A DNA stretch of 64,000 nucleotides, from the IMG/VR virus record IMGVR_UViG_3300022217_000228, positions 1 to 64,000 of that record; one strand, written 5' to 3'. The position numbers and the translations under genes are program-made. Origin of the DNA: a virus. Taxonomy: Duplodnaviria > Caudoviricetes. The notes under the pieces were generated by a model, which was given only the letters and a program-made list of their open reading frames with translations, was not told the origin of the DNA and ran no database searches. Positions 3,049 to 64,000 of this stretch are shown piece after piece. How positions within the stretch are numbered: position 1 is the first letter of the stretch; each line of letters opens with the position of its first letter.

Positions 3049-3612
3049 TTGCTATATGGGCTGATGAGGCGGGTGTGTATGAAAAGGCGTTGGATGAAGC
3101 GTAGTAGTAACAGGGTTTCGTCATCTTCTCATGGTGATATAGTTAAGTTGTACAGTGAGGATATGGTGTCTATGATAGAGATAGCTAGTCGTTATGGTGT
3201 GACACGTATGGCTGTGTGGAAGATATTGAAGAAGTGTGGTGTTGATACGAGCAAGGCTGCTGCTAATGTAGCTACGAAGTGTGAGTGGTGCGGTGAGGGG
3301 TTTAAGTTGCTTCGTTGTTATTATAGGAGTAGGCTTCATCATTTTTGTAAGCCTGAGCATTATTATAAGTGGTTGAACCGGTCGATAACGCCGTATATAA
3401 AGCACCGTTATAGTTTAAAGATAGCCCGTAAGATAGTTGAGGAGCATTTCTTTATTGAGCCTGGCCAAGTGGTTCATCATGAGAACCGTGATCAGACTGA
3501 TAACAGCCTATCAAATCTGCGTGTTTTTGACTCCCAAGGAGACCATACAAGATATCATCGCGGCTTTGACGCTAAACCAGTTTGGGACGGCAGACAACCA
3601 ACCCCTTGTTAA
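3049..3612 (+). CDS. HNH endonuclease with N-terminal HTH and Zn motif (true start probably downstream)
   Basis: VVHHENRDQTDNSLSNL...HTRYH; CEWC...HHFC. Confidence 0.75.
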   Translation: MLYGLMRRVCMKRRWMKRSSNRVSSSSHGDIVKLYSEDMVSMIEIASRYGVTRMAVWKILKKCGVDTSKAAANVATKCEWCGEGFKLLRCYYRSRLHHFCKPEHYYKWLNRSITPYIKHRYSLKIARKIVEEHFFIEPGQVVHHENRDQTDNSLSNLRVFDSQGDHTRYHRGFDAKPVWDGRQPTPC

Positions 3613-4581: not shown

Positions 4582-4614
4582 ATATATTTCACATAATCAG
4601 TAGTTGGTGTCAAG
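4582..4614 (+). other. attI-like cassette entry site A
   Basis: ATATATTTCACA-9 nt-GTTGGTGTCAAG directly before the first + strand cassette; same 12-mer at 49297-49308. Confidence 0.55.
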
Positions 4615-4647
4615 TTTTTGAACTTTTAATTTGGAGGAAATTTTACT

Positions 4648-4956
4648 ATGTGGAGATTATTGGAAGTCGGTGAAGTTCGTCAGAGAGATGATGAATATAT
4701 ACTCAATGCGAATCCGTGGGAACCTATTGGGTCAATCATCGGAATACCGTTTAAAGATGGTGACAACCCGGTGCGCCGTAAAATTTCGGATAATTCGGAG
4801 GTTCAAAAACCAACCGCTAACATCGACTATACGGCGGTGCTTAAAAAGGAACTGAATCAATGGATTAATTCAGCGCCATCAGTTGTTGCCGAGAAAGATA
4901 TTCATCAATTTGCAGCGCACCTCAATGCCGTGATAAACAAACGGCACTGCACATAG
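4648..4956 (+). CDS. Cassette-borne hypothetical protein, translated through its attC
   Basis: GGAGG RBS; PTANIDYTAV is encoded by the hairpin left arm. Confidence 0.7.
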   Translation: MWRLLEVGEVRQRDDEYILNANPWEPIGSIIGIPFKDGDNPVRRKISDNSEVQKPTANIDYTAVLKKELNQWINSAPSVVAEKDIHQFAAHLNAVINKRHCT

Positions 4957-4973
4957 TCGAGAACCGTTGTGCG
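4814..4973 (+). other. attC-like site
   Basis: CCGCTAAC-ATCGACTATACGGCGGTGC ... GCACTGCACATAGTCGA-GAACC-GTTGTGCG. Confidence 0.8.
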
Positions 4974-5004
4974 AAATGTTTTTTTGAGAGTATAGGAGTT
5001 TGCC

Positions 5005-5235
5005 ATGACACTAAAAGAAGCATTTGATTTTTTGCAACAGAGGCATCGTGTTGTAGAAACCGAAAGCGATACCGAATCAAAATCATGGCAAGCTCTGAAG
5101 TCAGCGGTATTCGCTCAACAGCACTTAACAGGCGATAAAAACGAGCCGGAGGACATTACGCCCTGTGAACATGAGTGGAGGGCGGCGTGTACTCAGGCGA
5201 TTTGTAGGAAGTGTGGAGAAATATCAGATGATTAA
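5005..5235 (+). CDS. Cassette-borne hypothetical protein with Cys-rich C-terminus inside the attC loop
   Basis: AGGAG RBS; CEHEW...CRKCGE lies in the loop. Confidence 0.7.
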   Translation: MTLKEAFDFLQQRHRVVETESDTESKSWQALKSAVFAQQHLTGDKNEPEDITPCEHEWRAACTQAICRKCGEISDD

Positions 5236-5273
5236 CGACGGCGTAACGTCTTTTATCGCCGAACCGTTGGCCA
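5121..5273 (+). other. attC-like site
   Basis: CACTTAAC-AGGCGATAAAAACG ... CGTCTTTTATCGCC-GAACC-GTTGGCCA; same family as 63827-63992. Confidence 0.8.
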
Positions 5274-5277
5274 TAAT

Positions 5278-48994: not shown

Positions 48995-49005
48995 TAATGT
49001 CCTTT

Positions 49006-49136
49006 TTCACAACGGTCCGCGAATATGTGCAGTGCTGGAGCCATCCGGCTTATTTACGCGCCTTTGGGCTGGTGCCGAAACCCGCATAATCCAACTTAGT
49101 AGCACAACCAGCATTGCATATATTCGCTGTTGTATG
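49006..49136 (-). other. attC-like site of a solitary cassette
   Basis: CATACAAC-AGCGAATATATGCAATGCTGG ... CCAGCACTGCACATATTCGC-GGACC-GTTGTGAA. Confidence 0.85.
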
Positions 49137-49283: not shown

Positions 49284-49308
49284 ACAACTATATTAGTGTG
49301 AAATATAT
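49277..49308 (-). other. attI-like cassette entry site B
   Basis: ATATATTTCACA-8 nt-GTTGTATGCAAA. Confidence 0.55.
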
Positions 49309-54841: not shown

Positions 54842-55263
54842 GCTATTTTTTTAGCTTTTTCCAGAGTGATAGACTTTCCTCTTCTGAATTCTATTGTCGG
54901 ATATTTAAACATGATGCAGTCTTGTTTGTGCACCCATAAAACGAAAGACCAGTGATTGCAAGCGTGCCACGATAAAAAATTTTTGACTTGATCGTCTGAT
55001 AACCTACTGTGAAAAAGTTTATCACTATCGCATAATTTTACTTCGATGAATGCCGGAAGCCAAAAACCATCTTGCGGGATAGAGCAGATGAAATCACACG
55101 GTGTCCCCCCGGTGTGAACAACTCTATTGTACTTTTTAATGAACACCTTTTTTGTTTCCAGCTTATGCACATTTTCGAAGCTGTTTTCTTTGAAAAACCA
55201 GCGCGCCCGATCTTCTCCGAATTTACCGAGTTTCTGAGGGTTGACTAGTTGCATTTTCATCAA
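54826..55263 (-). CDS. PD-(D/E)xK Holliday junction resolvase-like protein
   Basis: GKFGED, PCDF, FIEVK. Confidence 0.7.
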   Translation of the reverse strand: MMKMQLVNPQKLGKFGEDRARWFFKENSFENVHKLETKKVFIKKYNRVVHTGGTPCDFICSIPQDGFWLPAFIEVKLCDSDKLFHSRLSDDQVKNFLSWHACNHWSFVLWVHKQDCIMFKYPTIEFRRGKSITLEKAKKIAWIKV

Positions 55264-55615
55264 ATAAATCGATCGTTGTATTGTTGTTATTTGAATTTCT
55301 ATTATTCATATGTTTTAACAGATCAAGTCTTAGGTGGCAACGTTGACACAGAGCTATTAAATTTTGTTTAGTACTATTCATTTTATTTCCATCAATATGA
55401 TGCACAGTAAGAACTATTTTAGTTTCTTTAAAATCGACACCACATTCGTCTAATGTTTCTGTATATTCCCATGGATGCGAATAATCACTATTAAACCTGC
55501 CGACAATAATACCGTTTGGAGCAAAGCACAGCTCACACTTATTACCAGCATCTTTGATTACCTGTTTTGATAGCCATTTCCAATTTTCTGGATATTCTTT
55601 GTAATCTATTGGCAT
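55223..55615 (-). CDS. HNH endonuclease-family protein
   Basis: CELC, LTVHHIDGNKMN...NLIALCQRCHL. Confidence 0.85.
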   Translation of the reverse strand: MPIDYKEYPENWKWLSKQVIKDAGNKCELCFAPNGIIVGRFNSDYSHPWEYTETLDECGVDFKETKIVLTVHHIDGNKMNSTKQNLIALCQRCHLRLDLLKHMNNRNSNNNNTTIDLFDENATSQPSETR

Positions 55616-55989: not shown

Positions 55990-57030
55990 TTATGACAAAA
56001 TCATTTCTGCTTCGACATAGGAAGCACGCAACTCAGAAACATGATTAGTCGTCATTTTCTTTTTTAATTCAGGAGTTATTTCTTTTCCGAGTTTTTTTAA
56101 ATCGTCCAGAGATTCGCACAATACAATTCTCCCTTTGTATTTTTTAAGAATTGTGGTAGATTCAGACTCTTTTAGTGCGTCTTCTTTGGTTATTTGTTCG
56201 GCGTCTATTGCTGCTGTTTCATCTTCTGATTTCATGGCAGCCTGCTTACCGCCAAGAAGAGGAAGAAGTGGCTTGATAAGGTTGTCATAATTAGGCGAAA
56301 TTATTGTACGACCTGATAGTATCCCGGTGCGATCCTTCTCAGCAAATGCTGTGATTGATGCCAAACCACCCTTTTTGTCTTTAGTTGACTCCATGTGCAT
56401 TAGAATGTGTGGCTCGTATGGTGTTTCACCTTCTGCCTTCATTTTAGTGCCAATGTTTTTTAATTCGCCTGTTTCTTCATCTTCTTCGAAGTCGTTGCCC
56501 TGTCGACCGCATATAATCACATGCATTGGAGAAGAAAGAAGGTAATTGATTAATTCTTTATAGGGTTTTTTGATTTTTCCCCAAGCATGAAAAGGAATCG
56601 TACCTGCTGATGTAATTTTTCCTTTGTATGCCTGTTTTGACGCTTCCCAGATGTGAGTTATAGAGTCTATGATTATTATTCCATACTCATTTGGATTAAG
56701 TCCTTTTACGTCGCTAATTACTTCTGTAATGGAGCGGGTATAATTAGCATCAAAATCAAAGGCTCTCGGGTGTACTTTTCTTTCCTCCACATCCTTGCAG
56801 TAAAAATCTGTTCCACGCTCAGTATCAACAAATGCTATTCGTTTTCCGGTAAACGCTGCTAATCCTTCGGCACATAGGAGCGCCGTAAATGTTTTCCCGC
56901 TTCCTGATTTCCCATAAAAACCGATTTTTAATGCTGCTTGCTCTGCCTTTGCTTTTCTAAATCCAGCCATAATTAAATCCCTTTCACCTATTGCATAATT
57001 GTAAATGGACAAATCTTTCTTTAATCTCAC
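55990..57030 (-). CDS. AAA-family ATPase, Sak4-like phage recombination protein (likely start 56970)
   Basis: YGKSGSGKT, FVDTERG, IIIDSITH, HVIICGR. Confidence 0.85.
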   Translation of the reverse strand: MRLKKDLSIYNYAIGERDLIMAGFRKAKAEQAALKIGFYGKSGSGKTFTALLCAEGLAAFTGKRIAFVDTERGTDFYCKDVEERKVHPRAFDFDANYTRSITEVISDVKGLNPNEYGIIIIDSITHIWEASKQAYKGKITSAGTIPFHAWGKIKKPYKELINYLLSSPMHVIICGRQGNDFEEDEETGELKNIGTKMKAEGETPYEPHILMHMESTKDKKGGLASITAFAEKDRTGILSGRTIISPNYDNLIKPLLPLLGGKQAAMKSEDETAAIDAEQITKEDALKESESTTILKKYKGRIVLCESLDDLKKLGKEITPELKKKMTTNHVSELRASYVEAEMILS

Positions 57031-57114
57031 AAAACGATTTTACCCACTGCTTATCAGATTTTCTTTTAACCACGATTCCACAGTGTACACACCTGTATTT
57101 TCTGATTCGTATTT

Positions 57115-57303
57115 TCATTGCTGTGTTATAGGCTGTTGGCAAGATTCCTCATTTCTTAAAATGCGAGGACAATCACCCTCTTCACAACGATGTGTTTCGT
57201 TAATTCTCGACAAACAAACATAGCCCAAATTACCCCCATGACAGCGTTCACGCGCATTACAAAACCATTTGAATTTATCGAAATCTTCATTTAATAGAAG
57301 CAT
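57115..57303 (-). CDS. Last cassette gene, Cys-rich; followed by a degenerate attC
   Basis: GGAG RBS; inverse core GCCTATAAC at 57125-57133. Confidence 0.65.
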   Translation of the reverse strand: MLLLNEDFDKFKWFCNARERCHGGNLGYVCLSRINETHRCEEGDCPRILRNEESCQQPITQQ

Positions 57304-57332
57304 TTTACTCCAATCGTTTTGAATTGCCTATT

Positions 57333-57468
57333 GCCTACAACGTTTGCGAAATGTGCGCCGTTAAAACCTATAGCCACAATGAGGACACGATTCAACGGTA
57401 TCCACCTTGATTAACTTACGACAACCAGGGCACGGCTCTTTTAATGGCGCACTTTCTGCTGTTGATGG
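57333..57468 (-). other. attC-like site S1
   Basis: + strand: GCCTACAAC-GTTTGCGAAATGTGCGCC ... GGCGCACTTTCTGCT-GTTGATGG. Confidence 0.88.
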
Positions 57469-57645
57469 TTGTGCTACGGGTTCCACAGTGTAATCAGCGC
57501 TCGACAGGAAATTTTCCAACCCTCGTAATTCTGCCTGTGCTGCCCGTTCACAACCGAGTTTAACTTCATTACCTGCTAATTGTTCAACAGCTATACTACT
57601 GGAAATAACCTTTAATCTGGACTCGATATATTCTGATAGTTTCAT
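57361..57645 (-). CDS. Cassette gene with C-terminal Zn ribbon inside the attC loop
   Basis: CPGC...CPHC. Confidence 0.7.
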   Translation of the reverse strand: MKLSEYIESRLKVISSSIAVEQLAGNEVKLGCERAAQAELRGLENFLSSADYTVEPVAQPSTAESAPLKEPCPGCRKLIKVDTVESCPHCGYRF

Positions 57646-57680
57646 AATTGCGTTTATCCAATCTATTTAAGAGTAGCATT

Positions 57681-57857
57681 TCCACCAACGGACTAGGCAT
57701 CCGCCCGAAGTTGCCGTTCTAAAAATTCGTGATACATTTCTGCCATAAAAACAACATCATCTTTAATGCCACCTGCTCCAATTTCCCACAAATATTCAAT
57801 AAATGATTCCTTATTGTCTTCCCATAACGGCAATTTTGGGCTGCCTGGGTTGGTGGA
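57681..57857 (-). other. attC-like site S2
   Basis: TCCACCAAC..AGGCATCCGCCCGAAGTTGCCG ... CGGCAATTTTGGGCTGCCT..GTTGGTGGA. Confidence 0.88.
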
Positions 57858-57986
57858 TGCGTTTTCGACCTTAGTTAAAGCTTCTTTTATGCGATACCAC
57901 GAATCAATAACTTTTTCTGGGTGACAAATATATTTAAAACTTGAGTCTATCGTTTTTATGTCATCAGTAAGCATAAAAGACTCCAA
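57693..57986 (-). CDS. Cassette gene, related to 63546-63797
   Basis: Shared STNxGSPKLP and RQLRAxA. Confidence 0.7.
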   Translation of the reverse strand: MESFMLTDDIKTIDSSFKYICHPEKVIDSWYRIKEALTKVENASTNPGSPKLPLWEDNKESFIEYLWEIGAGGIKDDVVFMAEMYHEFLERQLRADA

Positions 57987-58000
57987 TCAACTGAACGTTT

Positions 58001-58076
58001 CCACCAACGTCTTGGCATACCAGAAGTGCGTCAGCATTTGGGAGAGGCTTCCGAACCTGCTATTGTTTGTTATAGG
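58001..58076 (-). other. attC-like site S3 (short, weaker pairing)
   Basis: CCACCAAC..TGGCA..GAAG ... CTTC..TGCTA..GTTATAGG. Confidence 0.65.
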
Positions 58077-58083
58077 CTGTTTG

Positions 58084-58617
58084 TCAACCATCCTTATTAT
58101 CCTTTTTGGAGGCGGTCTTAGCATTAGCACAAAAATCTAACCATCCTTCCTTATTACCTGTTTTCAAAAATGGCTCTGCTGCGGCTAATACCTGAAGCGC
58201 GTTCGTGTAATATGTAAGACCTTCTCCGTGACTGCCCCAAAGGTTAGTAATTCCAAGGCAGGAAGCTAACGCCGATATCGTTGCCCCATGAGCAGACTGT
58301 AGAACATCAGAGCCGTTTTTGAATATCCAATCGAGGTTAGATTTTTGTGTAGCTTCTTCTTTCTCCTCATTTCCCCATTGCTGCAATAGATCCATACGAT
58401 CCGATTGAATTAATTCTAATTGTTGCTCGTAATACCATGACGATTCGCCTCTACCTTTTATATGAATGGTATATTGTTGCGATTCGCGTTTACCGCCTCC
58501 ATATTGGTCTTTATATGACCCAATTACAATAGCGTAACAGTCTGATTCAAAATGTGACATCGTGGGACCGAGGTCTTTTATTACGTGAACAAAGTCTCCT
58601 TTGTGATATTTTTGCAT
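58084..58617 (-). CDS. Cassette gene, hypothetical with SH3/KOW-like N-terminus
   Basis: KGDFVHV...AIVIGSY...SWY; GGAGG RBS. Confidence 0.75.
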   Translation of the reverse strand: MQKYHKGDFVHVIKDLGPTMSHFESDCYAIVIGSYKDQYGGGKRESQQYTIHIKGRGESSWYYEQQLELIQSDRMDLLQQWGNEEKEEATQKSNLDWIFKNGSDVLQSAHGATISALASCLGITNLWGSHGEGLTYYTNALQVLAAAEPFLKTGNKEGWLDFCANAKTASKKDNKDG

Positions 58618-58658
58618 TAGTAGCCTCCAAAACTACAATATAAAACGGTTGATAAATT

Positions 58659-58796
58659 GCCTATAACGGTTTGCGAAATGGCCGAAGTAGTGCACCCGCC
58701 GAAGCTCCCGTTGAGCTTGCACTGTTTATGTCGGGTTAGTGCGCGGCCCACGTCGGAAGTATCGAGTGCACTATTTTGACCTTTCGCTGTTATTGG
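58659..58796 (-). other. attC-like site S4
   Basis: GCCTATAAC..GCGAAATGGCCGAAGTAGTGCAC ... GTGCACTATTTTGACCTTTCGC-T-GTTATTGG; the ORF stop TAA lies in the inverse core. Confidence 0.9.
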
Positions 58797-58999
58797 CATG
58801 TTGTTGCCGATTCTATAGCCAACTTTTTTCGCTGGCGTTTATATTTAATACCTTTCCAACTTGAACAAAATCCATCGCTACTAGTACGAGTATCCTGTAA
58901 ATCACAGATACCAGGATTGGCGAATTTATCGTTTACCCATTTAGTATACCAAGTACAAGAACCGCATCGTTTTTTATGTATCAAAGCGAAAAACTCCAA
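58790..58999 (-). CDS. Cassette gene, small Cys-rich protein
   Basis: CGSC...C...C; GGAG RBS. Confidence 0.7.
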   Translation of the reverse strand: MEFFALIHKKRCGSCTWYTKWVNDKFANPGICDLQDTRTSSDGFCSSWKGIKYKRQRKKLAIESATTCQ

Positions 59000-59018
59000 T
59001 TCTCAAGAGGCAATAATT

Positions 59019-59097
59019 GCCCATAACGTTCGATGCTACCAGACGTTTTAATGTTCCGAAGGACAAGCGTCAGCGCCGCTGGTAGCATTTGTTGGCT
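59019..59097 (-). other. attC-like site S5
   Basis: GCCCATAAC..ATGCTACCAG ... CTGGTAGCAT-TT-GTTGGCTG. Confidence 0.85.
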
Positions 59098-59287
59098 GCT
59101 GTGCAGCGTGTTCCGCCATTGCTGCGGCGCATCTATCGGAAAATCGATTAAGCGCCGACAATACTCCAGGTTCCAAACAGATACGATCTGTAGGGTTTTC
59201 ATGATCATTTGCATGTAACCAGATAGCGTATCCATCAAAAAGACCATAGACACCATCTCCGAGATAATCTTTCATTACAAATTCCAT
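59048..59287 (-). CDS. Cassette gene, phage-type hypothetical (ORF track extends it upstream to 59455)
   Basis: KDYLGDGVY...ICLEP; AAAGG RBS. Confidence 0.7.
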   Translation of the reverse strand: MEFVMKDYLGDGVYGLFDGYAIWLHANDHENPTDRICLEPGVLSALNRFSDRCAAAMAEHAAQQPTNATSGADACPSEH

Positions 59288-59321
59288 TGCGCCGCCTTTC
59301 TGTAAATTTAAGAGCTGCATT

Positions 59322-59423
59322 GAACACAACGTTTCCAGGTTTGGTGAAGTGCCGCGTGTTTTTGCGGCATTTGCCGAAGGCCGAAGTGAGCTTGCGAACG
59401 GAGCACCAAACCTGTGTTGTAAG
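59322..59423 (-). other. attC-like site S6
   Basis: GAACACAAC..CAGGTTTGGTG ... CACCAAACCTG-T-GTTGTAAG. Confidence 0.88.
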
Positions 59424-59451
59424 CTGTAAACCTGCCCCTGCCTTTTGCCTT

Positions 59452-59700
59452 TCACGCCGCCGCCTTCTTTTTGTTCTTTTTAAAATATTCCTTCAGTATC
59501 ACGGATACTGTCTTGTTTCCCGATCTCTCATCCTCTTTCGCCTTTTTATCTATCATCGTCCAAAGGTTTGATTCAAGATAGATGCTTCGTGACGTCATTT
59601 GACTTGTTTTCATATTTTCATCTATTTTGGTGTAAGACATTATGAAATATATAAGACTTCCTCTTGCCTTTGTCCTCACTATAAATATTGCTGCTATCAC
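59452..59700 (-). CDS. Arc/ribbon-helix-helix-like DNA-binding protein (likely start 59640 or later)
   Basis: RSIYLESNLWTMIDKKAKEDERSGNKTVSVILKEYF. Confidence 0.65.
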   Translation of the reverse strand: MIAAIFIVRTKARGSLIYFIMSYTKIDENMKTSQMTSRSIYLESNLWTMIDKKAKEDERSGNKTVSVILKEYFKKNKKKAAA

Positions 59701-60034
59701 ACTTTATTGGAATAGCAATCCAAAGATCATTGTTTTTGTCGGGTTTATTATACTTATCCTGCAAAGTTGTATCGAAATGTTGAAATGTCTTACTATTGAT
59801 ATTGACAATTGGCTCAAGTTTAAACTGTATAGAATTGACATCAAGCTGCTTAGATATCCTTCCAAAAAGGAGAAATACGATGCAAAAGAGAAGAACTATC
59901 GTAATAAGGCTAACAGGAGAGTAGTATTCGCTGAACCTGTCTTGATAATACTGCAAGTCACGGTTTGTCTCGGTACCTTGTTTATTCTCTTTTGGGGAGC
60001 TATTCATTTTTCCTCTATTTTTTAACCTCATCAT
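59618..60034 (-). CDS. Hypothetical membrane protein; an antiparallel ORF (59642-60025, +) is equally open
   Basis: One transmembrane segment, co-oriented with the array; coding strand unresolved. Confidence 0.35.
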   Translation of the reverse strand: MMRLKNRGKMNSSPKENKQGTETNRDLQYYQDRFSEYYSPVSLITIVLLFCIVFLLFGRISKQLDVNSIQFKLEPIVNINSKTFQHFDTTLQDKYNKPDKNNDLWIAIPIKCDSSNIYSEDKGKRKSYIFHNVLHQNR

Positions 60035-60128
60035 GCACTATTAAATAATGTTAAAAATGATTATTCTTTTCAGTATGAAAACGTTGCTTCCTGGCTATCC
60101 GAGAATTATTAATAGCCATTGTTATCAT

Positions 60129-60449
60129 TCATTTTATATTCCTTTTTATTCTAACTTGTCTTTCGGCGGCGTCTTCCTGTCTTCGGGCAGGTTTTTTGCT
60201 TACAACGGGTTGCCGCACTCGCCAGCAGTACCCCACCGGAATAGTTTGCATTACCGGCAGCCTCGCACTTCTCGAACGTAGCGATCTCGTCCCAGAGCTT
60301 GAGGTATTGCTGGCTGCGGCTGTTGTACGATGTAAAGTGAGCTTCCTTAGTGTAAGCACAATCCAGCTTCGGAAGAAGTCTAATTTCACTTTTTGAAAAG
60401 TGCTACGACTTGAAAGTCCACTGTTTGGTTTAATTGTGCTTATTAACAT
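60129..60449 (-). CDS. Cassette ORF reading through the whole of S7
   Basis: RTTAAA in the usual frame; coding status uncertain. Confidence 0.4.
   Translation of the reverse strand: MLISTIKPNSGLSSRSTFQKVKLDFFRSWIVLTLRKLTLHRTTAAASNTSSSGTRSLRSRSARLPVMQTIPVGYCWRVRQPVVSKKPARRQEDAAERQVRIKRNIK
60198..60329 (-). other. attC-like site S7
   Basis: GCTTACAAC..GCCGCACTCGCCAGCAGTACC ... GGTATTGCTGGCTGCGGC-T-GTTGTACG. Confidence 0.88.
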
Positions 60450-60465
60450 GAAAGCTCACTTTATT

Positions 60466-60609
60466 TTGTACAACGGCTTCAGGCACCCGCCTGCCGTGGC
60501 CGATAGAAATCGTCTGCATCTCGAATACAATGATTTGCACCTAAAAGGCAACACTGCCCCTTTTTATTATCACAATCGTCAGGACATGGCAGGCTGCCTG
60601 GGTTAGAAG
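60466..60609 (-). other. attC-like site S8
   Basis: TTGTACAAC..CAGGCACCCGCCTGCCGTG ... CATGGCAGGCTGCCTG-G-GTTAGAAG. Confidence 0.88.
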
Positions 60610-60802
60610 CTGTGGGCTGGGTTCCGCTGCCTTTTGAAATTTTACGAAGTAACGTACCACCAAACATTAACGGATAAACACCTACAGCTTGCCCGGCATA
60701 TAAAAAACTACACTTCCCAGGCTCCTTCAACTCTATTACAACCACATCACCGACTTTAGAGTATCCGTTACCAGCTTCTCTATATCCCGGTATATTAATC
60801 AT
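60479..60802 (-). CDS. Cassette gene with Cys-rich tail in the attC loop (ORF track starts it at 60931)
   Basis: GGAGG RBS before MINIPG; CPDDC...CC...HC. Confidence 0.7.
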   Translation of the reverse strand: MINIPGYREAGNGYSKVGDVVVIELKEPGKCSFLYAGQAVGVYPLMFGGTLLRKISKGSGTQPTASNPGSLPCPDDCDNKKGQCCLLGANHCIRDADDFYRPRQAGA

Positions 60803-60838
60803 AGTAAAATTTCCTCCAATAAATTTAAGAGTCGCATT

Positions 60839-60995
60839 GCTTCTAACGTTTGCGAAACGTGCGCCGTTACTTGAAACACGGTTTATTAGCATAACAATGT
60901 AGATTTTTATTTTTAATAGTACATTCATCATAATAACAACACGGCCTTGCGCTCCATTCTTCGTATTCTAATGGCGCACTTTCTGCTGTTGGATG
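60839..60995 (-). other. attC-like site S9 (same family as S1)
   Basis: GCTTCTAAC-GTTTGCGAAACGTGCGCC ... GGCGCACTTTCTGCT-GTTGGATG. Confidence 0.88.
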
Positions 60996-61166
60996 CTGTT
61001 GCTCGGCGCTCCCCTTGCCCTGCCGGGCTTCACCGCAGTACAATTCCATAACATCAGATACGTATAAATATCCACGCTTATCCCCATGAAAAGCTACCTT
61101 CACACTATTTAAACATGCATCGTTTAACTTATTATCGATTAAAAACTTCTGTTCCTTAGATCCCAT
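60867..61166 (-). CDS. Cassette gene with Cys-rich tail in the attC loop
   Basis: HPTAESAPL followed by CCYYDEC...HC...C. Confidence 0.7.
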   Translation of the reverse strand: MGSKEQKFLIDNKLNDACLNSVKVAFHGDKRGYLYVSDVMELYCGEARQGKGSAEQQHPTAESAPLEYEEWSARPCCYYDECTIKNKNLHCYANKPCFK

Positions 61167-61211
61167 AAAAACTACCTTTTACCCGGCCTTTAACATGGCC
61201 GCCGAGCAATT

Positions 61212-61293
61212 GCCACCAACGGGTTGCAAAACGTATTTAGTGCGGTACGCTCTCATACTGCCTCACCGCGTTGAATACTTTTGCTGTTATGGG
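61212..61293 (-). other. attC-like site S10
   Basis: GCCACCAAC..GCAAAACGTATTTAGTGCGGT ... ACCGCGTTGAATACTTTTGC-T-GTTATGGG. Confidence 0.9.
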
Positions 61294-61968
61294 CTGTAGC
61301 GCCCGATTCCTTATTTAAAACCGCAATGAGCTGTTCTCCGAGAAACTGCGTGTAAGCCGGCGGTATAGCTTGCGTTAACTCTTTCCTCGTCATCCAATCT
61401 ATGCCCATTGCGTTTCTCCACTCAATGACACTTCCCTTTGAGACATCACGCATGACTGTCCCCCATGTTTTCCAACGACCTGCACCACCGGCAACAGAAT
61501 AATAACCCTCTCCGATACGGCGACCGCGGTGTGATGGATGAGGAGGAATAAAAAAAAATGACTACAATCAAAATGGCGATGTCTGAAAACTTTTAAACCG
61601 AACATTAAACCACATAGCGTTATTGACTTATCAAGCGGAGCGCCTGGCACGTTTTCAACTACATATGGTATTCCAATTTTTTTTAATTCCGCAAGTGTCG
61701 GCGTAAGGTAATCAATATATTTTTTACCTCTGTTACGATGGACATTGGAAGCAATTGACCATTTCTGACATGGGGGAGAGGCATGTACTACATCGAATTC
61801 GTGATGATGATCCCGGAGATATTCCAGTGCATCAGATTGGATAAACTCAAATGGATACCGTTTTTGAAAAACAGTATCGACACCTACGATCTGAGTAAAG
61901 CCGGCCCTGAAATAACCCTTCGCTGCTCCACCTCCACCACAGTACAAATCTAAAAGTTTCCAGCTCAT
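61253..61968 (-). CDS. C5-cytosine DNA methyltransferase split by a -1 frameshift at a T9 run
   Basis: LLDLYCGGGG, HASPPCQ, VVENV in the first frame; MGIDWMT...QAIPPAYTQFLG in the -1 frame. Confidence 0.85.
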
Positions 61969-61998
61969 TGCCTATTTATTCTCCAAGAGGGCGGTATT

Positions 61999-62124
61999 GC
62001 CTATAACGTCTGATAAACGGGTGAAGTGTCTACCGGGTTTTTCGGCACACACCGAGAGGGCTGCCACCTTTGACCTCATAGTATTCATTTGTAGAATCAC
62101 ATTTCACCCTTTATTTGTTGTGTA
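61999..62124 (-). other. attC-like site S11
   Basis: GCCTATAAC..ATAAACGGGTGAAGTGT ... ACATTTCACCCTTTAT-TT-GTTGTGTA. Confidence 0.88.
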
Positions 62125-62237
62125 TTGGTTTTGCGCTTCCGCCATTTGGCAAAAACGACACACCAACACCATAACATATTTTTAGAATACTCAGTTGCTT
62201 CTTTACAGCCTATACACGGACACTTATCTTTTGCCAT
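62097..62237 (-). CDS. Cassette gene, 46 aa Cys-rich protein (ORF track starts it at 62462)
   Basis: GGGGA RBS; CPCIGC...WCWC. Confidence 0.55.
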   Translation of the reverse strand: MAKDKCPCIGCKEATEYSKNMLWCWCVVFAKWRKRKTNTQQIKGEM

Positions 62238-62259
62238 ACAATCCCCAAAAGCAAAACTT

Positions 62260-62444
62260 GTACACAACGGTTTAGCAAGGCAGAAGTTTGCGACTACAAT
62301 ATGGGCAAAACTGCATACCGTCAATTGACAAAATTGATTGTACCAATTCACCACAAGATGTATGAAAAAATCCACCATGCTCATTTTCCTTAATTTCCCA
62401 CTCGCAAATTTCCGGAGGCGAAAGCTGCCTTGCTTTGTTAGCGG
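62260..62444 (-). other. attC-like site S12
   Basis: GTACACAAC..AGCAAGGCAG-AAGTTTGCGA ... TCGCAAATTT..CTGCCTTGCT-TT-GTTAGCGG. Confidence 0.88.
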
Positions 62445-62616
62445 AATGTAATGCGAGTTCATTAGCTTTTAAGGCGGCAACTATTTCCCGGTGAAAACCA
62501 CCAAAAAGAGTTCTAAAATATTCACCCTTACCGTCTATCGATAAATCAGATATTGCAGTGTTCAAGTAAGCTCCGAGCCTACCATTCCCTGGATCGCACA
62601 TATTTGATATATCCAC
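62272..62616 (-). CDS. Cassette gene with Zn-ribbon domain in the attC loop
   Basis: CEW...TSCG...FCPYCS. Confidence 0.75.
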   Translation of the reverse strand: MDISNMCDPGNGRLGAYLNTAISDLSIDGKGEYFRTLFGGFHREIVAALKANELALHSANKARQLSPPEICEWEIKENEHGGFFHTSCGELVQSILSIDGMQFCPYCSRKLLPC

Positions 62617-62653
62617 TTATTGCCGCCTTTATAATAAATCTAAGAGCATTATT

Positions 62654-62736
62654 TCCGCTAACGGATTGGCAAAGAGCCGAAGTGCGGTACACTCTCATAT
62701 TTACTTACCCGCATTTTGGCTTTTGCCTGTTAGCGG
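62654..62736 (-). other. attC-like site S13
   Basis: TCCGCTAAC..GGCAAAGAGCCGAAGTGCGG ... CCGCATTTTGGCTTTTGCC-T-GTTAGCGG. Confidence 0.92.
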
Positions 62737-62752
62737 TTGTTTTGACCGCATC

Positions 62753-63109
62753 CTAATTATCCTTTCGGCGAACGGCGGTTACACACTCTCGATACTTAAC
62801 CATCCAATCGCCACAGTCTTCATGTGCCCACGGATCATCTTTATACTGTTCGTACAAGATGGAATCATGTTTCTTTAAATCATCTATAGTTGCATTATAG
62901 GCAAGAGGACAATCCCATGAATTACAGCATCCTGGCTCCTGCTTGTTCTTGAATTTAGACGCACAACCATAACCGCCGTTTGGTATATTATCACCTGTAC
63001 AAAATAATCCGCATTCTCCAGATAAATTATCAATGTCTATTAAAACTGGTACTATGTTTCTATATGCCATATTTTCTCCAGTGAGCCGAACTACAATCTC
63101 AGCGGTCAA
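62753..63109 (-). CDS. Cassette gene, Cys-rich hypothetical (possible start 63070)
   Basis: CGLFC, GYGC, CCNSWDCPL; stops before its attC. Confidence 0.7.
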   Translation of the reverse strand: MTAEIVVRLTGENMAYRNIVPVLIDIDNLSGECGLFCTGDNIPNGGYGCASKFKNKQEPGCCNSWDCPLAYNATIDDLKKHDSILYEQYKDDPWAHEDCGDWMVKYRECVTAVRRKDN

Positions 63110-63113
63110 AATT

Positions 63114-63277
63114 GCCGCTAACGGTTTAGGTTAAAAGAAGTGCCGCCATAAAGCAGCGTTACATTCTATACCACCACGCGAAAGGCAAAAGCTGCATCCA
63201 GCTACCGGACATTCGGAACATGAGGGCGGCATTTGCGGAGCCGTAGCGTTAGCGGAGCTTTTAACCTTTGTTGTGTG
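63114..63277 (-). other. attC-like site S14
   Basis: GCCGCTAAC..AGGTTAAAAG-AAGTGCCGCC ... GGCGGCATTT..CTTTTAACCT-TT-GTTGTGTG. Confidence 0.88.
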
Positions 63278-63502
63278 GGCGCTTCGCCGGACTGGTTTTG
63301 TTGACTCCACATTATCCAGTGATTCTATGAAAGCTGCTACTTGACGCAAGCAATCGGGACGCCACCAAGTTAGATCGTCGCTTATTAGACACCACCTTTT
63401 CTTTCGGCTTACCCACTCTTTATGTATACGGCCGATTGCAACTGTACGATAACCAAAAACTGTAAACCCTTTATCGTCCGCTTCTATTTTTAGAGCTTTC
63501 AT
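63131..63502 (-). CDS. Cassette gene, phage-type hypothetical with Cys-rich tail
   Basis: IGRI..W...WC...CLRQVAAFI; CSEC...CSFC in the loop. Confidence 0.75.
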   Translation of the reverse strand: MKALKIEADDKGFTVFGYRTVAIGRIHKEWVSRKKRWCLISDDLTWWRPDCLRQVAAFIESLDNVESTKPVRRSAHTTKVKSSANATAPQMPPSCSECPVAGCSFCLSRGGIECNAALWRHFF

Positions 63503-63533
63503 AAATCACCTTTAATATGGTTCAACAAAACTT

Positions 63534-63679
63534 GCGCACAACGTCTCAGGCACCCGCCCGAAGTTGCCGACACAGTTCATCGTAAAACTGCTGAGTTACC
63601 CACCTATGACGATCCTCTGCACCAGTAGCCTCAAACATCTCATCGTGTGTCGGCAATTTTGGGCTGCCTGTGTTGGTGG
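63534..63679 (-). other. attC-like site S15 (same family as S2)
   Basis: GCGCACAAC..CAGGCACCCGCCCGAAGTTGCCGACAC ... GTGTCGGCAATTTTGGGCTGCCTG-T-GTTGGTGG. Confidence 0.92.
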
Positions 63680-63797
63680 AAGTAAATTTTTCCTCCACCA
63701 GTTTTTTTATGCGGCCCCAAGCCTCCATCGGCCACAATTTGCCATAGCTAATGACCGCCTCTTCAACATCGGTAATATCCCCTTTGGTTATAAGCAT
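63546..63797 (-). CDS. Cassette gene, related to 57693-57986
   Basis: GGAG RBS; STNTGSPKLP, RQLRAGA. Confidence 0.7.
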   Translation of the reverse strand: MLITKGDITDVEEAVISYGKLWPMEAWGRIKKLVEEKFTSTNTGSPKLPTHDEMFEATGAEDRHRWVTQQFYDELCRQLRAGA

Positions 63798-63826
63798 ATA
63801 CTACAATCTCCAGAGAAAAATTTATT

Positions 63827-63992
63827 TCCACCAACGGATTGGCGATAACAGAAGTTACGCCGGTTGATAATTACTAAGACAATCTACCGAATTAATTTTC
63901 CACATACAATTAAGACCACCAACGCATCGTGAACAATTAGGCGTAATTTCCCCTTCGGGCAAGGCTTCCGCCGTGTTATCGCCTGTTGTAAG
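63827..63992 (-). other. attC-like site S16
   Basis: TCCACCAAC..GGCGATAACA ... TGTTATCGCC-T-GTTGTAAG. Confidence 0.88.
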
Positions 63993-63998
63993 CTGTGC
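63855..63998 (-). CDS. C-terminal part of a cassette gene entering from the right edge
   Basis: LTTGDN...EITPNCSRC...C...C resembles HLTGDKN...DITPC of 5005-5235. Confidence 0.5.
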   Translation of the reverse strand, partial: AQLTTGDNTAEALPEGEITPNCSRCVGGLNCMWKINSVDCLSNYQPA

Positions 63999-64000
63999 TG

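Follow-up and report, generated by a model that had tools for sequence, protein, structure and literature searches.

Probable mobile gene cassettes in a phage genome, arranged as in an integron and bounded by hairpins of opposite bulge polarity

Integrons are regarded as bacterial devices, and recombination of folded attC sites is held to require the insert specific to the integron integrase IntI. In the phage CTX-phi, attP(+) is integrated by XerCD at dif, a reaction in which an Xer-type recombinase without the insert of integron integrases acts on a single-stranded DNA hairpin and a double-stranded partner. This reaction integrates the whole phage genome into the chromosome and involves no cassettes, arrays or AAC/GTT signature. 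In T4-type phages, promoter-early-stem-loop (PeSL) cassettes hold small accessory genes as shufflable units bounded by stem-loops; each of these units has a promoter, and recombination by homology has been proposed for them. Here we analyse a run of hairpin-bounded gene cassettes (the main array) in IMG/VR virus record IMGVR_UViG_3300022217_000228 (Duplodnaviria; Caudoviricetes). The window is the whole stretch of DNA analysed, namely bases 1-64000 of this 73,346-bp record, and coordinates marked as genome positions refer to the full record. We conclude that the region is probably a phage-borne, integron-like array of mobile gene cassettes.

Clusters of attC sites lacking integron integrases (CALINs), as well as captured integrons, have been published from phages (Qi et al. 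2023, PMC9892861). In a canonical attC site the extrahelical bases lie on the L'' arm, opposite the bottom-strand AAC triplet; the spacer measures approximately 5-6 nt per arm (Nivina 2016, PMC5027507). The locus described here agrees with this plan in its cores and departs from it in its arms.

Hairpin sites of the main array

The original prediction, made from the letters of the sequence, placed 16 crossover points between 57341 and 63835, and every one of them falls on the G of a GTT in the minus (coding) strand. The proposed core, GTTRxxxx(C/A)AA, fits 16/16 of these sites and the unit lengths given (261-876 bp) were correct. Folds computed with AAC and GTT forced to pair show an imperfect hairpin closed by each GTT, with xxxxxAAC at its 5' end, as had been predicted, although several 5' arms had been put too near to GTT and the true site length is 66-174 nt. 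The estimate of at least 16 units was borne out, as the main array comprises 18 hairpin sites in 7.6 kb and extends past the window. Read on the coding strand, a site consists of xxxxxAAC, 1 (rarely 2) nt, a 6-bp stem, and further stem with a variable loop; the 3' side continues with a 0-3-nt bulge, the 6-bp stem, 4-5 nt mostly ending in C, and then GTTRNNGGCAAT.

A strict form of this plan (AAC-N1-2, 6-bp stem, N4-5, GTT) matched 13 times in the array, against approximately one match per strand/spacer combination in shuffled sequence, and picked out three further sites elsewhere in the genome, always co-oriented with the local genes. We also used a covariance model, R1, built from 28 short sites that all came from other contigs. 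R1 recovered all 16 predicted sites. Across the 73-kb genome it returned 21 sites as full-length matches (E 3e-13 to 2e-3) and nothing else at E < 0.01; these are the 16 sites already listed, two beyond the window and three satellites. No match was obtained on approximately 120 kb of control loci. Well-paired stems are kept in 19 of the 21 sites, which reach E < 1e-4 with R1.

Pairing in the 6-bp helix amounts to 95% over the 19 sites within the window, and each of the six pairs shows compensatory changes on both of its sides, while partner columns slid as a control paired in only 26-40% of cases. G-U pairs occupy just one of 238 cells. Folding favours the non-coding strand, which is the more stable of the two in 18/21 sites here and in 51/59 sites elsewhere. 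The near-absence of G-U pairs and the better-folding non-coding strand argue for DNA structure rather than RNA structure. They bear directly on the idea that the hairpins act in RNA, as inter-cistronic processing or stabilising elements (RNase III sites as in T7 early RNA) or as weak terminators. In favour of this idea, the hairpins close every cistron at its 3' end, point throughout in the direction of transcription and contain an asymmetric internal loop. RNA folding, however, leaves unexplained the match between each site and the core of the previous one, the GTT-to-GTT duplicate, the hairpin-less entry motif and the adjacent recombinase elsewhere (all described below), and no Rfam family matches the array. 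As the sole explanation the RNA-level reading is already contradicted, and we consider it very improbable.

The 16 window sites, numbered from the end of the array, all lie on the minus strand. Site 1, the last of the main array, spans 57330..57468 (G 57341, AAC 57463; R1 25.4 bits, E 2e-6; supported by folding), and its loop encodes the zinc-ribbon tail of ORF (open reading frame) 57361-57645. It is preceded in the direction of transcription by site 2 at 57678..57856 (G 57689, AAC 57851; 22.8 bits) and by site 3 at 57997..58076 (G 58008, AAC 58071; 22.3 bits), the stem of which is degenerate. Sites 4 and 5 occupy 58656..58796 (G 58667, AAC 58791; 37.8 bits) and 59016..59098 (G 59027, AAC 59093; 35.5 bits), and site 6 at 59319..59423 (G 59330, AAC 59418; 33.8 bits) closes a two-gene cassette. 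Then come site 7 at 60195..60329 (G 60206, AAC 60324; 33.0 bits), site 8 at 60463..60609 (G 60474, AAC 60604; 20.0 bits) and site 9 at 60836..60995 (G 60847, AAC 60990; 23.4 bits). A methyltransferase cassette is closed by site 10 at 61209..61293 (G 61220, AAC 61288; 30.2 bits), beyond which lies site 11 at 61996..62124 (G 62007, AAC 62119; 40.0 bits). Site 12 at 62257..62444 (G 62268, AAC 62439; 17.1 bits, E 2e-3) is the longest at 174 nt and retains 6/6 stem pairs. The best match to the model is site 13 at 62651..62736 (G 62662, AAC 62731; 44.9 bits, E 3e-13), which is fully intergenic. Sites 14 to 16 are found at 63111..63277 (G 63122, AAC 63272; 24.4 bits), 63531..63679 (G 63542, AAC 63674; 38.4 bits) and 63824..63992 (G 63835, AAC 63987; 22.2 bits). 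R1 placed the two main-array sites beyond the window at genome 64222-64304 (G 64233) and 64512-64593 (G 64523).

Cassettes, crossover point and site polarity

Each cassette runs from the TT of one GTT to the G of the next, and contains a conserved head (TTRNNGGCAAT), a ribosome-binding site (RBS), usually one small ORF, and the 3' hairpin. The 16 in-window cassettes of the main array (57341..64000, minus strand) were annotated from the ORF table with Pfam and PHROGs. As the original prediction had it, most hold a single co-oriented ORF with its own RBS. The units are promoterless. Nearly all of these ORFs belong to no known family in Pfam or PHROGs. The two-gene cassette encodes a membrane protein (59618-60034) together with an Arc-like repressor (59452-59640; match to an Arc-like PHROG). 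Another cassette carries a C5 DNA methyltransferase (61253-61968, minus strand; PF00145), the reading frame of which is split in two at a homopolymer run of nine A/T at approximately 61549-61557; this break may stem from a sequencing error, mark a pseudogene or represent a phase-variable tract. Other cassette products are an NrdR-like zinc-ribbon protein and many small proteins of no known family. Overall, the array is probably a store of exchangeable accessory genes, comprising the DNA methyltransferase, the Arc-like repressor and the many small Cys-rich proteins.

In approximately 11 of the 16 sites the AAC arm falls within the upstream ORF, and the loop of these sites encodes the last 20-50 residues, often as a Cys-rich or zinc-ribbon tail. 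In two other phage contigs, one hairpin-encoded tail stands both after a radical-SAM protein in the Logan contig L007 (7991-8071) and after a methyltransferase remnant in the IMG/VR contig L021 (13860-13943). The shared tail peptide reads ..NSAMPG..PPQI.EAQTSA, and in the L021 copy GTT is mutated to GAT. The hairpin modules seem to be portable between genes. Cassettes and site families are also common to phage contigs that are otherwise unrelated, with no core genes in common.

The five bases before AAC (R'') of a given site complement the five bases after the GTT of the previous site at 4.1/5 positions, compared with 2.3/5 for the site's own GTT and 2.2/5 for other pairs, and 0/100,000 permutations reached the observed sum. 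Such an offset is the one seen in integron cassettes, because the bases after G/TT travel with the next cassette. By itself, this signature is compatible with a crossover at the 5' or at the 3' end of the hairpin. Three further observations place the crossover in GTT, as judged from sequence comparison. On contig L046 one cassette has a second copy; the identity of the two is 100% between the GTT at one end and the GTT at the other, and their flanks are unrelated. The satellite cassette 4603-4966 is similar to a cassette of L046 from GTT onward, and the left neighbours differ, with an entry motif here and another hairpin there. Finally, the hairpin-less entry sites conserve GTT and not AAC. 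We also considered a crossover at the AAC of the 5' arm, with the coding strand as the canonical bottom strand. It was rejected, as the L046 duplicate runs from GTT to GTT rather than from AAC to AAC and the entry sites conserve GTT; it would moreover leave the single cassette at 49 kb without a hairpin and split ORFs. The offset complementarity, the L046 duplicate and the relative that starts at GTT thereby support the earlier proposal of recombinable, co-oriented cassettes.

These data also bear on homologous shuffling between short repeats, as has been proposed for PeSL cassettes of T4-type phages, which would need no site-specific enzyme. Some hairpin arms are indeed near-identical between cassettes: sites 1 and 9 have nearly identical arms with unrelated loops and ORF bodies, and the arms of sites 2 and 15 are approximately 95% identical. 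A gene for a Sak4-like AAA_24 protein also stands beside the array. Most sites, however, have only AAC, GTT and a few flanking bases in common, too little for such a process. The breakpoints are confined to the three nucleotides of GTT, and arrays in other contigs come with a dedicated recombinase and entry site. Shuffling by homology is hardly credible as the origin of the array.

The original prediction had described the layout as attC geometry. The AAC/GTT hairpins and the G/TT crossover stand, whereas the canonical attC form does not, with the bulges and the long spacer on the opposite arm. All 21 sites have the R''/R' cores (..AAC / GTT..) and a variable terminal structure. When every combination of spacers was scanned without bias, the coding strand had a 3' arm that was 3-4 nt longer than its 5' arm, and the mirror combinations stayed at background. 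Of the bulges that follow the 6-bp stem, 30 were on the 3' arm and two on the 5' arm. The same script was run on a real aadA1 attC site (100% identical to R100) as a control; there the coding strand's 5' arm held both bulges, and the spacer was roughly symmetric. The sites of this phage therefore depart from canonical attC in polarity and spacer, having their bulges on the 3' (L') arm and a spacer of 1 x 4-5 nt. The simplest reading would be a different recognition logic that matches a different enzyme.

Entry sites and an Xer-type recombinase beside related arrays

Only three copies of the 11-mer TATATTTCACA exist in the genome, and an array's first GTT follows each of them at a distance of 8-9 nt. 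The three arrays headed in this way are the main array, a single cassette at 49.3 kb and a two-cassette array at 4.6 kb. At genome 64888, beyond the window, the main array begins, with its entry site at 64888-64908. A sigma-70-like promoter (TTGACT-N17-TATAAT) and an 86-aa ORF stand at its head, followed by TATATTTCACATAACGTCTA/GTTGTAGGCAAT, and the array thus lies downstream of a sigma-70-like promoter, in the early/replication region. The motif TATATTTCACA-N8-GTT at 49286..49307 (minus strand; G 49288) heads the single satellite cassette 49288-49013, which ends in a hairpin site at 49002..49136 (minus strand; R1 24.8 bits) directly before the RBS of a licD-like gene. Similarly, TATATTTCACA-N9-GTT at 4583..4605 (plus strand; G 4603) heads the two-cassette array, in which cassette 4603-4966 has its site at 4814..4977 (plus strand; 22.4 bits) and cassette 4966-5266 has its site at 5122..5277 (plus strand; 25.4 bits). 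The three motifs align with a motif that follows the stop codon of a recombinase gene in contigs L068, L069 and L070. We regard the conserved motif as a putative attI-like entry site. An ordinary promoter was considered and rejected for it, as only the 49-kb copy fits a -35/-10 pair and the 11-mer is found nowhere else in the genome.

Using a shared hairpin arm as the search pattern, we found arrays with this type of site on L021 and L007, and also on contigs binned into metagenome-assembled genomes (MAGs), namely L039/L068, L042, L046 and L044. The site-arm pattern TTTCGCAAAC..GTTRNNRGCAAT gave 0 matches in viral contigs. In L068, a gene for a 288-aa tyrosine recombinase ends 16 nt before TTCAACATAACTTA/GTTGTAAGCAAT, which is followed by an array of 11 sites. 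The order of recombinase, motif and array is the same in L069 (93.5 kb, phage; 12 sites) and in L070 (63.7 kb, phage; 8 sites), the array of the latter lying between the terminase and a P22-type portal gene. In all three contigs a small, co-oriented Xer-like recombinase is followed within approximately 20 nt by TTCAxCATAAC..TA/GTT and then by hairpin-bounded cassettes. The recombinase clade comprises approximately 40 proteins at 48% identity or more, and all three of its members' contigs for which DNA is available (3/3) have the recombinase, the motif and an array of 8-12 sites; the contig of another member has the same layout at gene level only. The next relatives of the clade (35-45% identity) bear, where named, solely DPANN-archaeal names. 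A tRNA-like sequence (T-arm GGTTCGATCCCC) was observed inside one cassette of the recombinase-linked array in L068, at approximately 2420-2500.

Among NCBIfam models, the array-linked recombinase matched XerA (NF040815) best, with 202 bits, and reached 149 bits against a cut-off of 265 for IntI (TIGR02249). It aligns end to end with archaeal XerA structures; against VchIntIA the match falls into two pieces only, with 25 aa between them compared with 61 aa in VchIntIA. By these sequence comparisons the array-linked enzyme of approximately 280 aa is classed as Xer-type and as lacking the IntI-specific insert. The stretch that it lacks has been described as essential for integron function (PMC8138268). 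No protein exceeded the TIGR02249 cut-off in three MAGs that hold such arrays. Arrays stood on contigs binned as Omnitrophota or Thermoplasmatales, but we set these bin labels aside as evidence of a host and regard them as unreliable for such contigs, as G001:C5 resembles a block of phage structural genes in its size and arrangement.

These findings speak against a fragment of a classical integron, in which the cassettes would have come from a host chromosomal integron and been moved by a canonical host IntI. The overall geometry would suit such a CALIN, with its AAC/GTT cores, variable loop, co-oriented promoterless ORFs and offset core complementarity, and CALINs are known in phages, where IntI1 recombined 5/6 of the phage attC sites tested (PMC9892861). 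On the other hand, the bulges and the long spacer lie on the L' arm, rather than on the L'' arm as in aadA1 attC and according to Nivina 2016, and the spacer is 1 x 4-5 nt rather than approximately 5-6 nt per arm. The only recombinase found beside this type of site has no IntI insert, the three MAGs with such arrays hold no protein above the IntI cut-off, and the same cassettes and sites recur on phage contigs. With 18 sites in 7.6 kb and no integrase, the main array is a CALIN in layout only, as canonical attC polarity failed. We consider a classical integron fragment improbable.

The phage itself encodes no such enzyme. Its record is labelled linear, but the genome is effectively closed at approximately 73.2 kb, because the contig ends share an identical 126-bp overlap (bases 1-126 = 73210-73335; the last 11 nt of the contig are unmatched) and an ORF truncated at base 1 resumes at the opposite end. 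Across this whole genome there was no match to TIGR02249 or PF00589 and hence no tyrosine recombinase. A search for a hidden recombinase in 40 ORFs with PHROGs and Pfam returned only HNH endonucleases, an IstB-like ATPase and the AAA_24 protein. Missing genome ends were considered as the cause of the absent integrase and excluded by the 126-bp overlap.

By analogy with integrons and from the signatures described above, a tyrosine recombinase would excise cassettes as circles and reinsert them, with strand exchange within the GTT/AAC triplet of the folded, single-stranded hairpin. Insertion would take place at a double-stranded attI-like site, TATATTTCACA-N8-10-GTT, one of which stands at the head of each of the three arrays. 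The enzyme would not be a classical IntI but an Xer-type recombinase of approximately 280 aa without the IntI insert, as in the three other contigs, two of which are clearly phage. Because the closed genome has no such gene, movement in this phage would require a recombinase supplied in trans by a co-infecting phage or the host; otherwise the cassettes would record past captures.

Several points weigh against this interpretation. No recombinase was found in the closed genome, and movement of cassettes in the phage is predicted from the sequence. The proposed link between the Xer-type enzyme and cassette movement is drawn from adjacency in three contigs. No close relative of the phage was found, and the main array therefore shows no readable polymorphism in cassette presence or absence: a tblastn search with the portal protein gave no match in GenBank phages, and the AAA_24 relatives L005, L006, L008, L009 and L010 (60-72% aa identity) have no such sites. 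Among the AAA_24 relatives compared, only L007 (74% identity) has an array. Two sites are weak, 58008 (dG -2) and 62268 (17 bits). For IntI, moreover, a bulge placement of this kind disfavours the strand implied here (PMC5027507), and IntI chemistry is therefore not simply transferable to these sites.

The absence of the enzyme also raises the possibility of a fossil array, built by the cassette mechanism but now inert in this phage through loss of the recombinase gene. The closed genome without a tyrosine recombinase, the broken frame of the methyltransferase cassette and the one degenerate site all speak for it. Against it stand the 19/21 sites that keep well-paired stems, the identical 11-mer in all three attI-like motifs, and the arms of paralogous cassettes, which are approximately 95% identical while the ORFs have diverged and so suggest continuing selection on the sites. 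We judge a fossil unlikely, though by no means negligible. Under the preferred interpretation of a mobile, integron-like array, this phage would be an integrase-less, three-locus member of a phage-associated integron-like cassette system with a different enzyme and site polarity. More tentatively, and with a shade more doubt than belief, phages may run an integron-like exchange network of their own, in which an insert-less Xer-type recombinase reads hairpins of opposite bulge polarity, integrase-less phages keep attI-like docks and approximately 20 cassettes and draw on a shared pool with a helper, and translated hairpins graft interchangeable Cys-rich tails.

Genome setting and relation to known systems

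The genome carries phage markers, namely a P22-like portal, HNH endonucleases, a small terminase, glycosyltransferases and an AAA_24 (Sak4-like) ATPase. Every gene of the array region flagged by the original prediction lies on the minus strand. The AAA_24 ATPase gene (55990-57030, minus strand) adjoins the main array, and the placement of the array relative to this gene differs between contigs, being upstream in this phage and downstream in L007, on the opposite side of the gene, and the array is absent from the five other relatives. The AAA_24 ATPase has more than 2000 homologues on metagenome contigs. Three separate genes resemble HNH or homing endonucleases (627-1160, 3049-3612 and 55223-55615), two of them close to the 4.6-kb satellite array. 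The third (55223-55615, minus strand) stands outside the array here, and a 64%-identical homologue forms a cassette within the L068 array (L068 4779-5099). An ORF at genome 69837-70478 (minus strand) has a prokaryotic N-terminal methylation (type IV pilin-like) motif, a possible hint to the envelope type of the host.

Full-text searches of the literature turned up no account of an insert-less Xer-type recombinase with a phage-borne array. What emerges here is that phage genomes bear the complete genetic signature of cassette capture, in association with a plain Xer-type recombinase and with hairpins of opposite structural polarity. If confirmed, hairpin-based cassette capture would be independent of the IntI insert, and phages would have a modular route by which to exchange accessory, probably anti-defence, genes across unrelated lineages. 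It would also provide a second compact, structure-specific recombination system for study and engineering, and would make the origin of integron integrases from Xer enzymes directly testable.

Integrons, especially sedentary chromosomal ones, share with this system co-oriented, mostly promoterless single-ORF cassettes, AAC/GTT hairpins with a variable loop, and the G/TT crossover. Equally, the inverse core complements the first bases of the cassette's own sequence, and in the other contigs a dedicated entry site adjoins the gene for a tyrosine recombinase. Unlike in integrons, the recombinase of the relatives is Xer-type, has no IntI insert and is encoded in the same orientation as the cassettes. 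It is the L' arm, not L'', that bears the bulges and the longer spacer; the central spacer is 1 x 4-5 nt, and the sites, up to 174 nt long, often encode the C-terminal tail of the cassette protein. Carriage by phages is a further difference, and the present genome has three entry sites and no recombinase.

The phage CALINs (PMC9892861) resemble it in having clusters of attC-type sites without an integrase in phage genomes, and in having methyltransferase genes among their cassettes. They were defined with canonical attC models and a minimum of two sites per cluster, and were recombined by IntI1, whereas we find 18 + 2 + 1 non-canonical sites, attI-like sites and, in other contigs, an Xer-type recombinase. 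The proposed reaction would resemble that of CTX-phi and XerCD in its insert-less Xer-type recombinase, folded single-stranded site and double-stranded partner. Unlike PeSL cassettes, the units described here have no promoter of their own and a crossover position fixed at GTT, and a recombinase and an entry site dedicated to them exist.

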